A stretch of DNA of 57,414 nt from Deltaproteobacteria bacterium (GTDB lineage Bacteria; JACQOV01), in contig JACQOV010000051.1 in NCBI GenBank assembly GCA_016202395.1, positions 1 to 57,414 on the forward strand, given 5' to 3'. Position numbers and translations under genes: made by a program. The notes beneath the pieces are model-generated. The model made no database searches. It saw only the letters and a list, made by a program, of their open reading frames with translations, and had not been told where the DNA came from. Each line of letters begins with the position of its first letter. Positions within the stretch are counted from its first letter, which is position 1. Positions 20,124 through 50,984 of this stretch are shown in pieces.

Positions 20124-21344
20124 ATGAATCTATTTATAGCGGCAGCATTTTGGATTTCGGTTGCGGTAGCGTTTTTGTTTTTGAGTGAGGTGCCACGCCA
20201 GAACCGGGGTGTTGCATTTGCCCACGCTGCAGCAGAATCTTTTCCTCAGGCCAAGAGCGTTTTTTACTTCACGGATCATCTGGGCAGCACGCGTGTGGTG
20301 ACCAACGAATCGGCTGAAGAACAAGCTCGCTATTCTTATTATCCTTATGGTGAGATTTTAGCCCCTCACCCCAACCCTCTCCCCTTTGGGGAGAGGGCGA
20401 AGGGTGAGGGGGCTCTTTTTTACCTCTTTACTGGCCAACAGCACGATGTCGAAACCAACCTCTACTACTACGGCGCCCGGTACTACGATCCAAATCTCTC
20501 TGTATTTGTGTCAGTCGATCCTGCAAATGAGGAAACGGAAAATCCCTATCTTTATGTTTCGGGTAATCCGGTGGGTTACATCGATCCCGATGGCCGATAC
20601 GAAATCGGTGTCAAGGAGAAACAGGTGCCCGGAAGCTCGATGACCTTTCTGCAACACACGATTGCGTCGGCCCAAAAGTTGGTGGGGACTTTGAAGGGGG
20701 GTGAAGGTTACCAAATGTCTATCCGTGATTTTGCCTTCCTCAACAGTTTAGATTTGGGAGAGACGAGTGGCAACTATCTATCATTTCAGCCCCAAGGGAG
20801 CGTGGAGGTTGGCAATGGCTATACCGTGATTTTGTATACCGTCACAACGGAGGGAATGACTCAGAATATTGAAGAGATCGATGGGGTTCGGAAGGCTGTG
20901 GTCAAAAATGGCAAGGTACTCAGTGGTGCGGGAAAGAAGATCGGTTCCATGAGCGGATTTAGCTTGGAATTTCCTGTGAAAGCAACCGTGGCGAGTGGGG
21001 GGTATTTAGTCGATGCTCAAGGAAAGATTGTGGGGGGGAGGATTGTTTATAATCGGGAGGCTCAGATTCTCACCAAAAAGCCTCCGACGGAAACGGCATC
21101 CGATAAAGCAGTGATTCTCTTTGAAGAACAACAGGGGATGGGGCCTGCGGTGGTCACTTTGTTTGATGTCCATAAGGGGGGAGGGCTTGCCTGGATAGGG
21201 AGAATTAATATTAAAGGCGCAGAGCTCAACTTTACGACCACAGAAGTAAATACCGGGAAGGATGTTTCAGAGGACTATCAACAGCGAGACCAATTTTTGA
21301 AGCAAAAAGGATTTACGGAGCAGATGCTAATGGGGAAACCATGA
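20124..21344 (+). CDS. Cartridge 4: signal peptide + Rhs core (with in-frame palindrome) + unknown tip
   Basis: Long signal ending [32 protein letters not shown]. Confidence 0.85.
   Translation: MNLFIAAAFWISVAVAFLFLSEVPRQNRGVAFAHAAAESFPQAKSVFYFTDHLGSTRVVTNESAEEQARYSYYPYGEILAPHPNPLPFGERAKGEGALFYLFTGQQHDVETNLYYYGARYYDPNLSVFVSVDPANEETENPYLYVSGNPVGYIDPDGRYEIGVKEKQVPGSSMTFLQHTIASAQKLVGTLKGGEGYQMSIRDFAFLNSLDLGETSGNYLSFQPQGSVEVGNGYTVILYTVTTEGMTQNIEEIDGVRKAVVKNGKVLSGAGKKIGSMSGFSLEFPVKATVASGGYLVDAQGKIVGGRIVYNREAQILTKKPPTETASDKAVILFEEQQGMGPAVVTLFDVHKGGGLAWIGRINIKGAELNFTTTEVNTGKDVSEDYQQRDQFLKQKGFTEQMLMGKP
20362..20411 (+). repeat. 50-bp GC-rich palindrome (REP-like) translated in frame, copy P1
   Basis: CCCCTCACCCCAACCCTCTCCCCTTTGGGGAGAGGGCGAAGGGTGAGGGG encoding PHPNPLPFGERAKGEG. 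Confidence 0.9.
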
Positions 21345-22456
21345 GATCTCGATTTTATCAATTAGTTTCGATGGTAGGGGTGCTTTCACTCGCAGGCCAG
21401 ATAATCTGTCCCATTTCCAATGCAAAGGCCGAGGGGGGCGGTAACGCCACGCAGAGTTCTCCCGTGGTCTCTTCCACGCGTTTTTACCATGGGGATCATT
21501 TGGGGAGTACCACAACACTCACCGACGAGGAAGGAGTTCCGTTAGAGAACCATCGTTATTATCCTTATGGTGAGGTCCGGGGGACTTTTTTAGAGCCACT
21601 GGAGACAGATTATGGGTACACCGGTCAGAAATGGGATCCTGAAACGGGTTTAAACTTCTACGGGAGCCGTTATTACGATGGGAAACTAGGAAGGTTTATC
21701 AGCATCGATCCTTGGGTGAATCTAACGCGGCAGCCGTACGCCTATGCCAACAACAACCCCATTTATTATATCGATGTCCATGGGGATTATGCGATGGCTG
21801 CCGCCCTTCCCCTTCTACCGGGGTTCGGGCCCGTGGGGATTGCCATTGGAATAGGGATCCTTGTGGGATTTGGAGGATATGTGGCTTACGAATATTTGAA
21901 GACTCCTCCGACTACATCTACAGGGGATGTTTCTAAGGATCTTCCCTCTTTTCAACCTACTCATCCTACTGAGATTGGTGGTGGTTTAGAAGAGATTCGA
22001 CCGACGGACTATGGACCCCCTTTGATTTTTCCTGTGGAAGGCGTTCAAGATCCCAGGGAACAAGCCATATCCAACGCTTTGTTTGACAAATATGGTCATC
22101 AACTCATTGGCATTGGTAATGCCATTGGGGTGAACACTCAAAAGATAAACCGGATTGAGGGTCAAATAAAATCTTTGAGAGAGCAACAGTGGACCGTAAA
22201 GGAACAGATTGTTGCTAGGGCAGATGCCGCTCTCGATAATCCCAATTTGAACAACGCTGGATTAAGTATTGCGTTAACACAACTCCAAGACATGCGCGCA
22301 AAGTCAGAAGATTTAGGGCAGCAGATAAACCAACTCATCGATAAGTTAAACGTGTCGTGGGAAACACAATACAATCTTCTGGACGCAGAAATGCAGATTC
22401 GACGGGAGATACAAGAAGATTATTTTTGGATGAAGAATCCAGAGTGTCCTCCTTGA
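21341..22456 (+). CDS. Cartridge 5: signal peptide + Rhs core + Gly-rich TM helix and coiled-coil tip
   Basis: SNAKA signal; FYHGDHLGS..FYGSRYYD..NNPIYYIDVHG (DVHG instead of DPxG); GPVGIAIGIGILVGFGG. Confidence 0.85.
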   Translation: MRSRFYQLVSMVGVLSLAGQIICPISNAKAEGGGNATQSSPVVSSTRFYHGDHLGSTTTLTDEEGVPLENHRYYPYGEVRGTFLEPLETDYGYTGQKWDPETGLNFYGSRYYDGKLGRFISIDPWVNLTRQPYAYANNNPIYYIDVHGDYAMAAALPLLPGFGPVGIAIGIGILVGFGGYVAYEYLKTPPTTSTGDVSKDLPSFQPTHPTEIGGGLEEIRPTDYGPPLIFPVEGVQDPREQAISNALFDKYGHQLIGIGNAIGVNTQKINRIEGQIKSLREQQWTVKEQIVARADAALDNPNLNNAGLSIALTQLQDMRAKSEDLGQQINQLIDKLNVSWETQYNLLDAEMQIRREIQEDYFWMKNPECPP

Positions 22457-22480
22457 CAAGAGAGGTGAGGTAACTTGGGG

Positions 22481-49638: not shown

Positions 49639-49805
49639 AATAGTTAGTGTAGTGTAACAGTAATCACTTTACAGGCCGTTCGTGGTGAGCCTGTCGAACC
49701 ATGAACGGAACCCCCCGATATATTTCACCCTTCGACAGGCTCAGGGTGAACGGGATATGTAAAGCCGTTACTGTTACACTACATTAGATAGTTAGGTCTG
49801 ACCCC
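49639..49805 (-). repeat. RAYT-associated repeat R9, split by the MITE
   Basis: AATAGTTAG (49639-49647) + TTAGATAGTTAGGTCTGACCCC (49784-49805); removing the MITE and one TTAG restores the 27-mer upstream of cartridge 15. Confidence 0.88.
49648..49783. mobile_element. 136-bp MITE with 16-bp TIRs and apparent TTAG target duplication, inserted in repeat R9
   Basis: TGTAGTGTAACAGTAA (49648-49663) / TTACTGTTACACTACA (49768-49783); TTAG on both sides; internal hairpins CCGTTCGTGGTGAGCCTGTCGAACCATGAACGG and TTCACCCTTCGACAGGCTCAGGGTGAA. Confidence 0.88.
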
Positions 49806-49811
49806 CCGCTT

Positions 49812-50984
49812 TTATTCACCTTCTGAAGAGAAGGAATCCAGATAGGGGCTCCAGTCGTCAGAGCTATGCGGATCCGGAAAGTTTTTATCGAGGTATTTTC
49901 CCACCTTAAGATCAATACTATCACTATTCCCAAAAGACCAGTTTGCCCCTTCTATGACCATGTTCAAGGGACTCTCAAAAGGACCTAGCACTTCTTGCTT
50001 AAGGTATTGATCGATGATCTCGGCTGCCTCTGTGGGATTCTCTGAAGCGTATAGATCGGAGGCCATCATAGTTACTGTGAAGGCTGTGGAGAATATCCCT
50101 ATTTTTTGAACGTTTTTATTTCCCAATATTTTTCCTGCCCAACGGAGGGATTTTTGGGCTGATGAAAGTCCTTCAAGTTTTAAGGATAACTTTAATGTTT
50201 CTTTTCCGAGCCTGTTCCTTTCGGCCCTATAGCGATTCATCTGATTGGCGAAGGTTATATAATCGCCCCCCTCGTTGGCAAATTCGCCAAAGGCTTCTAC
50301 CGCGAGCCCTTCCTCTTTCAAAAATCTTTCCGCGATGGTTTTGTTTCGTTCATATTCTCGGATTGAAATCTCGCCATCCTTCATTTTGTAATATTCTCCG
50401 AGAGAAAACATATTGACACGTCCCTTCATGTCGTCATAAACTCCAAGGTATCCTGTCTTGGCCTCTTTTAGCGCTTCCTCGGTGTTTTTAATTTCAGCGG
50501 AGAGGCCTTTTCCTAGACGTTGAAACCACCCCTCCTCCTCACTCATCCCACTGGGGTCCACAACTCTTAGAGGATTATTCCAGGCATAAGAATAGAGATT
50601 GAGGTCTTGGGGCAAGTCGCCATTTCTTAGAGGATCTGGACTGATGAATTTTCCGAGAGAAGGATCGTAGTATCGGGAACCATAGTAGTAGAGGTTTGAT
50701 GCAAAGTCGAATTTCTGACCTGTGAAAAGGGAAGAGAGAGCCCCTTCACCCCAACCCTCTCCCCTTTGGGGAGAGGGTAAAGGGTGAGGGGAAAAGATCT
50801 CACCATAGGGGTAGTAAGAATAACGAGCCTGCTCGGCACCTAAGACGTCGGTCATCACACGGGTGCTACCGAGAGAATCCGTCTGATAAAATCGAACGGA
50901 TGTCGTTGAACCGATCGAATTTCCAAGACTAAGAAGGATTCCTAAAATGCCATAGACTAAGAGTTGGCGAATTCGTTTCCTCAC
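49812..50984 (-). CDS. Cartridge 16: signal peptide + Rhs core (with palindrome) + coiled-coil tip + shared C-terminal tail
   Basis: GTG start after AGGAGG; FYQTDSLGS..WNNPLRVVDPSG; tail ASENPTEAAEIIDQY..DPHSSDDWSPYLD. Confidence 0.85.
   Translation of the reverse strand: MRKRIRQLLVYGILGILLSLGNSIGSTTSVRFYQTDSLGSTRVMTDVLGAEQARYSYYPYGEIFSPHPLPSPQRGEGWGEGALSSLFTGQKFDFASNLYYYGSRYYDPSLGKFISPDPLRNGDLPQDLNLYSYAWNNPLRVVDPSGMSEEEGWFQRLGKGLSAEIKNTEEALKEAKTGYLGVYDDMKGRVNMFSLGEYYKMKDGEISIREYERNKTIAERFLKEEGLAVEAFGEFANEGGDYITFANQMNRYRAERNRLGKETLKLSLKLEGLSSAQKSLRWAGKILGNKNVQKIGIFSTAFTVTMMASDLYASENPTEAAEIIDQYLKQEVLGPFESPLNMVIEGANWSFGNSDSIDLKVGKYLDKNFPDPHSSDDWSPYLDSFSSEGE
50741..50791 (+). repeat. In-frame palindrome copy P5
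   Basis: Encodes PHPLPSPQRGEGWGEG, as in P3. Confidence 0.9.

Follow-up and report, generated by a model that had tools for sequence, protein, structure and literature searches.

A BoxC-type palindrome lying in frame, in both orientations, at one loop site of short Rhs cores

Introduction

How does a palindromic DNA element come to lie in the same protein loop of several paralogous genes, in frame each time and in either orientation? This question is raised by a stretch of 57,414 nucleotides from Deltaproteobacteria bacterium (GenBank assembly GCA_016202395.1, contig JACQOV010000051.1). The stretch, called the window below, is the whole of a 57.4-kb contig (C28) in a 1.9-Mb metagenome assembly of 108 contigs that is 89% complete. 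A first-pass annotation of the window numbered 16 short Rhs genes, or cartridges, and noticed a hairpin-forming element in the loop between the motifs YPYGE and LFTGQ of cartridges 4, 6, 10, 15 and 16. It proposed that one insertion had later been flipped and spread by gene conversion, or that the loop is an insertion hotspot, and that the hairpin might seed recombination between cores. Its numbering agrees with the list of open reading frames (ORFs).

Judged by its block pattern, the element is a full-palindrome (four-block) member of the BoxC/PIT/TMECO family, the "triplex motif"; we are thus dealing with a known repeat family in an undescribed setting. To our knowledge, BoxC or triplex motifs have no known function and no known enzyme, and they are reputed to be strictly intergenic. 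The names BoxC, PIT element and TMECO intrastrand-triplex motif denote the same repeat (Bergler, Bachellier, Hoyne and Maher; Holder et al. 2015, PMC4666352). The published survey counted 3610 copies across 262 proteobacterial genomes, found the E. coli copies to be "always" intergenic, and described palindromic pairs that decay into simple hairpins; no transposase was associated with the motif, and its sites in E. coli were tied to local genome instability, with no promoter, terminator or regulatory role found (PMC4666352).

Results

A 50-nt palindrome in five cartridges

All five sites were confirmed as 50-nt elements, with the translations that the first-pass annotation had given (Table 1). 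They share the architecture CCCCTCACCC-bulge-CCCTCTCCCC-loop-GGGGAGAGGG-bulge-GGGTGAGGGG and start 7 nt past the Gly-Glu codons of YPYGE, and both 10-nt stems are perfect save for one mismatch in the copy at 50742 (GGGTGAAGGG). YPYGE is present in ten ORFs of the window, five of which carry the palindrome in the loop before LFTGQ. Two forms can be told apart by their bulges, which are CAA and CGAA in form A (cartridges 4 and 6) and TTCG or TTTA, followed by TTG, in form B (cartridges 10, 15 and 16). As had been claimed, the two are reverse complements: once form B is turned round, 47-49 of its 50 nt agree with form A (49 of 50 for the copies at 20362 and 49392). The element of cartridge 15 is identical at all 50 positions to a copy in an Rhs core of another contig, C99.

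Folded as RNA, the element reaches -44 to -53 kcal/mol (z = -5 to -7), a stability equalled by none of 200 shuffled sequences, and folded as DNA it reaches -22.6 to -24.7 kcal/mol. In the genome, each strand holds 16 matches to the exact pattern, against none for the reversed-pattern control, and all five cartridge ORFs stay open through the element. The outcome that the first-pass annotation had named as a refutation, a chance GC-rich similarity with no copies elsewhere, gives way to a dispersed repeat with many copies elsewhere.

One junction, shared cassettes and a flipped interior

Across the genome, 13 Rhs cores hold a full copy in this loop, and the junction was measured in 12 of them, the composite copy on contig C73 (described below) being left out. 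In all 12, exactly 7 nt separate the GGNGAR codons from the element, which has a length of 50 nt; the next base is a G, so that element and G make up 51 nt, or 17 codons; the orientation relative to the gene is the same in 11 of the 13. Copies outside Rhs genes are 49-57 nt long and have unrelated flanks, with no target motif visible. The shared junction and length of the full Rhs copies argue for common descent and not for repeated insertion.

Exchange between cartridges is most visible in the pair 10 and 16, which lie on opposite strands 8 kb apart and are 50-70% identical in the rest of the genes. Around the element they share the longest near-identical tract among all pairs of the 16 cartridges (Table 1), a run that would arise by chance with a probability of about 3e-10 if the background identity were 70%. 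An orthologue of cartridge 10 from another metagenome (L126), 74% identical in amino acids over its full length, is element-free. Here a cassette of about 65 nt, HPFGQIRGSDLGQRASYNAYTNQ, replaces the stretch of about 95 nt that reads YPYGEIF, the element and ALSSLFTGQ, and both sides are well conserved. Together, this replacement and the tract of cartridges 10 and 16 indicate that exchange takes place in units of one loop cassette, about 65-120 nt in length.

The suggestion that the hairpin itself seeds recombination is not borne out as it was worded. The element-free pairs 7/11 and 3/13 have the same loop-centred patches, with identities of 0.93-0.98 and 0.89, respectively, versus 0.56-0.72 farther out. 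Patch conversion thus appears to be a property of the loop in this family, and the element its passenger.

The two forms are connected by cartridges 6 (form A) and 15 (form B), whose downstream flanks are identical at 35 of 36 nt and whose upstream flanks are similar, while the interior between the outer arms is present as its reverse complement. Form A also has bulges that are exactly complementary to those of cartridge 15 and the C99 copy. Because both forms sit in the same type of cassette, unlike the element-free loops, a flip of an existing copy is favoured over a new insertion. Within the window, the common junction, the 10/16 tract (117/118) and the flipped 6/15 interior fit the proposal of one insertion that was flipped and spread by gene conversion. 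When read on the + strand of the contig, cartridges 4, 6, 15 and 16 are alike and only cartridge 10 differs; a copy taken from an oppositely oriented gene through the palindromic arms would therefore have the same outcome as an intramolecular flip.

Copies within and outside Rhs genes

The genome-wide search that the first-pass annotation had called for returned 40 inner hairpins and 31 full elements on many contigs, in which the stems are conserved and only bulges and loops vary. Sixteen of the 31 full copies lie in frame within ORFs, namely 13 in Rhs cores and the others in NuoC, Mfd and a TrpE-like gene; in three other ORFs the element supplies the C-terminal tail. The short terminal Rhs core is itself abundant, with 62 ORFs that take up about 3.7% of the 1.9 Mb, most of them 350-420 aa long and most with a signal-peptide-like N-terminal start. 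About one third of these cores hold the element in the same loop (13 full and 8 decayed copies), 16 of them on contigs other than the window. Five of the decayed copies retain the right half only (RGEERGEG, a 27-nt in-frame deletion), two have three blocks without the left outer arm, and one is reduced to the outer stem.

Several sub-variants are found, which differ by compensatory changes in both stems: a C-G type (CCCTCTCCCC/GGGGAGAGGG with CCCCTCACCC), a T-A type (TCCTCTCCCC/GGGGAGAGGA with CCCCTCACCT), a type whose inner stem is longer, and a composite that contains an additional module. This module, 30 nt long (CCCTTCGACTCYGCTCAGGGCA.., read FDSAQG), lies between the left outer and inner arms (C73:4167-4250 and C91:7889-7962); the C73 copy is in an Rhs loop and the C91 copy is outside Rhs.

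For the NuoC that carries the element, the protein match exceeds the span of the Pfam profile by 17 residues. The closest NuoC orthologues, at 84%, 77% and 63% identity, are without the element, and the nearest named hits are from Brocadiia-type Planctomycetota (56-58% identity). The Mfd copy is degenerate.

The in-frame copies in NuoC, Mfd and the TrpE-like gene also fit the analogy with Rickettsia palindromic elements (RPEs) that had been drawn. Like RPEs and the intragenic repetitive extragenic palindromic (REP) sequences of GTAG/CGTC type, the element is an in-frame palindrome in working genes, where such repeats add some 17-50 residues in loops (Ogata et al.; Di Nocera et al. 2013, PMC3733652; PMC1779305). 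Repair genes are frequent hosts of these repeats, and one copy here is in Mfd. The likeness to RPEs, which are longer, is one of behaviour and not of sequence, and intragenic REPs carry a GTAG or CGTC tag that is absent here. In addition, no flipped pair is reported for RPEs or intragenic REPs, nor is the occupation of one site in dozens of paralogues. By analogy, BoxC appears to be handled in this genome like the RPEs in Rickettsia and like the intragenic REPs described by Di Nocera et al.

Assignment to the BoxC/PIT/TMECO family

On the strand with the 3-nt bulge, the five window copies match the Holder pattern CCCTCNCCC N3-6 GGGNGAGGG N3 GGGNGAGGG, as in CCCTCTCCC-CAAAG-GGGAGAGGG-TTG-GGGTGAGGG, and the strict TMECO pattern has 17 hits in the genome. 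The agreement covers the order of one C-block and two G-blocks with spacers of 3-6 nt and 3 nt, and also the habit of the repeat, which is dispersed and multi-copy, has conserved stems and free loops and no known transposase, and in its inverted forms decays to simple hairpins. Given the compact four-block version, each strand bears a TMECO motif. The published surveys of BoxC/TMECO covered Proteobacteria and some cyanobacteria and placed the E. coli copies between genes. The present element, in contrast, is a compact four-block palindrome of 49-51 nt from a non-proteobacterial lineage; it occupies a single fixed site in a family of paralogous genes, where it is apparently translated in frame and is found in both orientations. 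The intergenic location, however, is a description of the E. coli copies and lies outside the sequence definition.

A scan of one genome per species recovered the exact double-stem form at more than 117 loci among the matches listed, nearly all of which are 49 nt long with 3-nt bulges. These matches come from Omnitrophota, Nitrospirota, Thermodesulfobacteriota, Planctomycetota, Sumerlaeota, Rokubacteria, Enterobacter and others, and none of those listed is within an Rhs core. The exact element was found in none of 40 GTDB genomes related at the domain level only. A metagenome scan for (Y/F)GE followed by 7 nt and the element gave 20 hits, all of them due to chance, with no Rhs core among them. 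Two independent assemblies, JGI 3300045072 and Logan ERR14788038, contain the same embedded element.

An identity as REP or REPIN was rejected: the GTAG or CGTC tag is absent, the element starts with CCCCTCACC and ends with GGTGAGGGG, and the flanks are heterogeneous. With respect to the criteria for miniature inverted-repeat transposable elements, the whole element is an inverted repeat and the NuoC copy has the form AA-(49 nt)-AA, while comparison with NuoC orthologues indicates a replacement with a net gain of 15 aa and no clean insertion. No target-site duplication was seen at the Rhs copies.

The element-encoded loop in the protein

The host genes have a C-terminal core segment that ends in the DPxGL autoproteolysis motif, as in the terminal core of Rhs and TcC proteins. 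Using phmmer against the PDB, residues 38-151 of cartridge 10 align with the last ~100 residues of TccC3, YenC2, SGS1 and Rhs cores, including DPTGL, and the top Foldseek matches are also Rhs cores. A Pfam search of the cartridges gave no family at E 0.01 by which the C-terminal parts could be named.

The first-pass annotation had proposed to model the loop on an Rhs core. In the AlphaFold 2 model of cartridge 10, whose overall confidence is low (predicted template-modelling score, pTM, of 0.34), residues 65-79 have a per-residue confidence (pLDDT) below 50 and no secondary structure, between flanking strands at 86-88. The stretch encoded by the element, residues ~61-77, encloses this low-confidence region, and the element-encoded residues are thus predicted to be disordered between confident strands. 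Between cartridge 10 and its orthologue, dN/dS amounts to 0.17 and 0.08 in the two parts of the core that flank the loop, and to 0.55 in the C-terminal part. The low values in the core indicate that the gene is under selection, and the element is therefore most likely translated in the cartridges.

Candidate partner enzymes

The search for a cognate nuclease or transposase, also suggested by the first-pass annotation, had a divided outcome. The only DUF559 nuclease gene of the genome (C58:3016-3435; L150 1455-1874) is framed by two inverted TMECO motifs, with its ATG within the outer arm of the upstream motif and its TAA stop forming the bulge of the downstream, inverted one. At DUF559 loci of unrelated genomes, C-rich/G-rich hairpins of BoxC type lie within 150 nt on both sides of the gene in 10 of 22 cases and on one side in 7 of 22. 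When the locus of the present genome is included (23 loci), 36 of 46 BoxC-type hairpins fall in the ~11% of the sequence that adjoins the gene. The DUF559 nuclease is thus a candidate BoxC partner by association, which is not proof of mobilisation.

RAYT-like genes did not stand as partners. There are two, each with a Y1 transposase domain and a DnaA-C-like helix-turn-helix (83.5 bits to NF047646, cut-off 80), and BoxC copies flank neither. A perfect 24-nt palindrome, GATGACGCAATGCATTGCGTCATC, is found at 14953-14976, 220 nt upstream of the RAYT-like gene in the window, and is unique there.

Other repeats in the same loop

A second dispersed repeat, GTCATTGCGAGS-(variable hairpin)-SGAAGCAATCTCC, has about 25 copies, often as head-to-head inverted pairs, with intergenic examples at C37:2754-2830 and C100:3593-3665. 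It is read as VIARERSDRSNLPTNH in the Rhs loop of C2_8615, C95_22352 and C69_11260 (C2:8912, C95:22565 and C69:11500), where it sits at two different junctions across the three cores. Rhs homologues from other metagenomes have other repeat-like peptides in the loop, such as P0016 (PNPPLKKGGMGGF) and P0047 (VIASPEGAKQSQ), which suggests that hairpin repeats have been collected in other lineages too. The loop is clearly permissive for repeats. Two further loop types, HSTL.. and SVSGSRSTSH.., were considered as dispersed repeats and rejected, as they occur in Rhs cores only.

Genomic setting

The cartridges of the window form two arrays (16831-27101 and 42483-50984) that are packed end to end and leave no space for separate immunity genes. 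Between the arrays are two large genes, at 29975-37333 and 37414-42414, with SpvB, TcdB_midN and RHS-repeat domains (TcB/TcC-like shells). The second of these has no terminal core of its own in a hidden Markov model search, and 69 nt separate its end from cartridge 10.

Table 1. Coordinates of cartridges, BoxC-type palindromes and other features; positions without a contig name refer to the window
Feature	Position	Strand	Description
BoxC-type palindrome, form A, cartridge 4	20362..20411	+	CAA / loop TTT / CGAA; read as PHPNPLPFGERAKGEG
BoxC-type palindrome, form A, cartridge 6	22698..22747	+	CAA / TTA / CGAA; read as PHPNPLPLGERAKGEG
BoxC-type palindrome, form B, cartridge 10	42688..42737	+	TTTA / AAA / TTG; read as PHPLPSPQRGEGWGEG
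BoxC-type palindrome, form B in gene sense, cartridge 15	49392..49441	-	TTCG / AGA / TTG
BoxC-type palindrome, form B in gene sense, cartridge 16	50742..50791	-	TTTA / AAA / TTG; one outer-stem mismatch
Conversion tract, cartridge 10	42656..42773	+	118 nt, element at centre
Partner conversion tract, cartridge 16	50706..50823	-	matches 42656..42773 at 117/118 nt
Cartridge 4	20064..21344	+	signal-peptide-like N-terminus, ~110 aa terminal Rhs core, variable C-terminal part
Cartridge 6	22475..23716	+	same architecture as cartridge 4
Cartridge 10	42483..43643	+	same architecture as cartridge 4; core ends in DPTGL
Cartridge 15	48417..49640	-	same architecture as cartridge 4
Cartridge 16	49812..50984	-	same architecture as cartridge 4
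In-frame BoxC-type copy, NuoC	C8:9524-9572
In-frame BoxC-type copy, Mfd	C8:16236-16285
In-frame BoxC-type copy, TrpE/PabB-like enzyme	C92:2138-2187
RAYT-like gene	13762-14733	-	323 aa; second copy on contig C57

Discussion

The account that we consider probable is that one or very few founding insertions at the Rhs loop were spread by gene duplication and short-patch conversion, were flipped in place, and have been tolerated as passengers. One copy, or very few, would have entered the tip of the beta-hairpin of the terminal core, between YxPYGE and LFTGQ. With the following G it would add exactly 17 codons, and the protein may tolerate the resulting disordered loop, which is rich in Pro and Gly. 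Duplication of genes and conversion of the whole loop cassette would then have carried it to about one third of the 62 paralogues, and the interior of the founder copies would have been held by strong sequence constraint or, as we infer, re-copied from other BoxC copies. Deletions typical of palindromes would have eroded some copies to the right half, three blocks or the outer stem. As to a role of its own in the toxin, the element most likely has none.

The flip would be an in-place inversion of the interior between the 10-nt inverted outer arms, which, being identical, would preserve length and frame. Small inversions associated with hairpins are known from chloroplast non-coding hairpins, and template switching at quasi-palindromes from the thyA quasipalindrome of E. 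coli. As in those cases, the interior between short inverted arms is reverse-complemented with no change in length; the difference is that the event here would lie within coding sequence, where the swap of the 3-nt and 4-nt bulges gives two peptides in the same frame. The spread by conversion has a likeness in the C-terminal displacement and orphan toxin cassettes reportedly described for Rhs systems by Jackson et al. (2009) and Koskiniemi et al. (2014), where conserved core DNA provides the homology for exchange between paralogous toxin cassettes. In contrast to that process, the patches exchanged here are of ~60-120 nt in a hypervariable loop of the core and not whole toxin tips, and, unlike orphan cassettes, the cartridges have signal-peptide-like starts of their own.

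Several observations weigh against this account. The elements in Rhs loops are 92-100% identical, whereas their 120-nt flanks are 42-76% identical, the identity falling exactly at the element ends; for cartridge 15 and the C99 core, a 100% identical element is set between flanks of 46% and 53%. At least three sub-variants are found in Rhs copies (C-G, T-A and composite), each with a non-Rhs twin 1-3 nt away, the T-A copies being 1 nt from non-Rhs copies and the C-G copies 2-3 nt from one. Plain descent fails to account for the drop at the flanks and for the twins, and homogenisation limited to the element, or strong constraint on its sequence, would be required. A clean empty site or a target duplication was sought in element-free paralogues and orthologues, where a replaced patch was found instead. 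The tree of the cores has too few columns and most of its forks lack resolution, and it was used neither for monophyly nor for counts of gains. In addition, a metagenome assembly of 108 contigs may contain mixtures of populations. As to its mechanism, the flip would have been either a template switch or repair at the hairpin, or copying from an oppositely aligned BoxC copy.

The last of these mechanisms leads to a broader proposal, which we put forward tentatively and hold to be rather unlikely: BoxC may turn over by break-and-copy, in which the hairpin is cut, possibly by the DUF559 nuclease, and repaired from any BoxC copy, in either sense, through the identical arms. Such a process would also explain why Rhs sub-variants are nearly identical to non-Rhs copies.

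That the loop is instead a true hotspot seems to us unlikely. On this reading an enzyme specific for a site or a structure, for which the DUF559 nuclease or a RAYT-like transposase might be candidates, would have inserted BoxC and other hairpin repeats there repeatedly and independently, and the two orientations would be separate insertions. A hotspot would account for the three Rhs sub-variants with their near-identical non-Rhs twins, for the sharp drop in identity at the element ends, for the unrelated dispersed repeat in the same loop of three cores, and for the repeat-like loop peptides of homologues in other metagenomes. Full copies are moreover enriched about 200-fold in about 0.2% of the genome, a figure that is inflated by paralogy. 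Against a hotspot stand the invariant junction of the 12 measured copies and the one orientation in 11 of 13, and the non-Rhs copies have no common flank, hence no visible target motif. In both window forms the cassette is flanked by YPYGEI.. and ..L(S/F)xLFTGQ, flanks that element-free loops lack, and outside this lineage the metagenome scan for the embedded element gave nothing but chance hits. The hotspot suggested by the first-pass annotation is thus weakened by the invariant junction, and we keep it as a rival.

We regard it as improbable that the element is kept for a function, be it as a hotspot of recombination or instability for the shuffling of toxin cassettes, as an mRNA hairpin that tunes translation or decay, or as a loop switched by flipping. 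Such a function would be in keeping with the link of BoxC/TMECO to local instability in E. coli (PMC4666352), with the position of the element at the centre of the longest near-identical tract between cartridges, with a stable RNA hairpin ~200 nt into the ORF, and with stems that stay perfect while the adjacent coding sequence diverges. Yet the element-free loops of 7/11 and 3/13 have the same loop-centred identity, many copies are decaying by deletion of a half or of the inner stem, two thirds of the paralogues and the cartridge 10 orthologue do without the element, and no promoter, terminator or regulatory role was found for these motifs in E. coli (PMC4666352). An artefact of chance GC-rich similarity or of misassembly, which a 108-contig metagenome assembly might invite since palindromes and paralogues assemble poorly, is in effect refuted by the 16 exact matches per strand against none for the reversed control, the same embedded element in independent assemblies, the occurrence of form A in two cartridges with different flanks, and ORFs that are all open through the element.

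BoxC or triplex motifs are among the most widespread bacterial repeats. The present locus adds a site fixed across paralogues, both orientations within the same frame, a conversion tract that can be seen directly, and a series of decay states. About 20 copies at one homologous coding site, full, flipped, half-deleted or with the sub-variant swapped, make up a natural series for following turnover against a frame that stays fixed. They also show that 17 foreign residues are tolerated in the hypervariable hairpin of the Rhs core. The bracketing of the DUF559 gene by BoxC is directly testable at the bench. If break-and-copy were true, a single process would cover the fixed junctions, sub-variant switching, flips and partial deletions in Rhs loops, and it would give the first mechanistic handle on how an orphan repeat family of 30 years' standing maintains itself.

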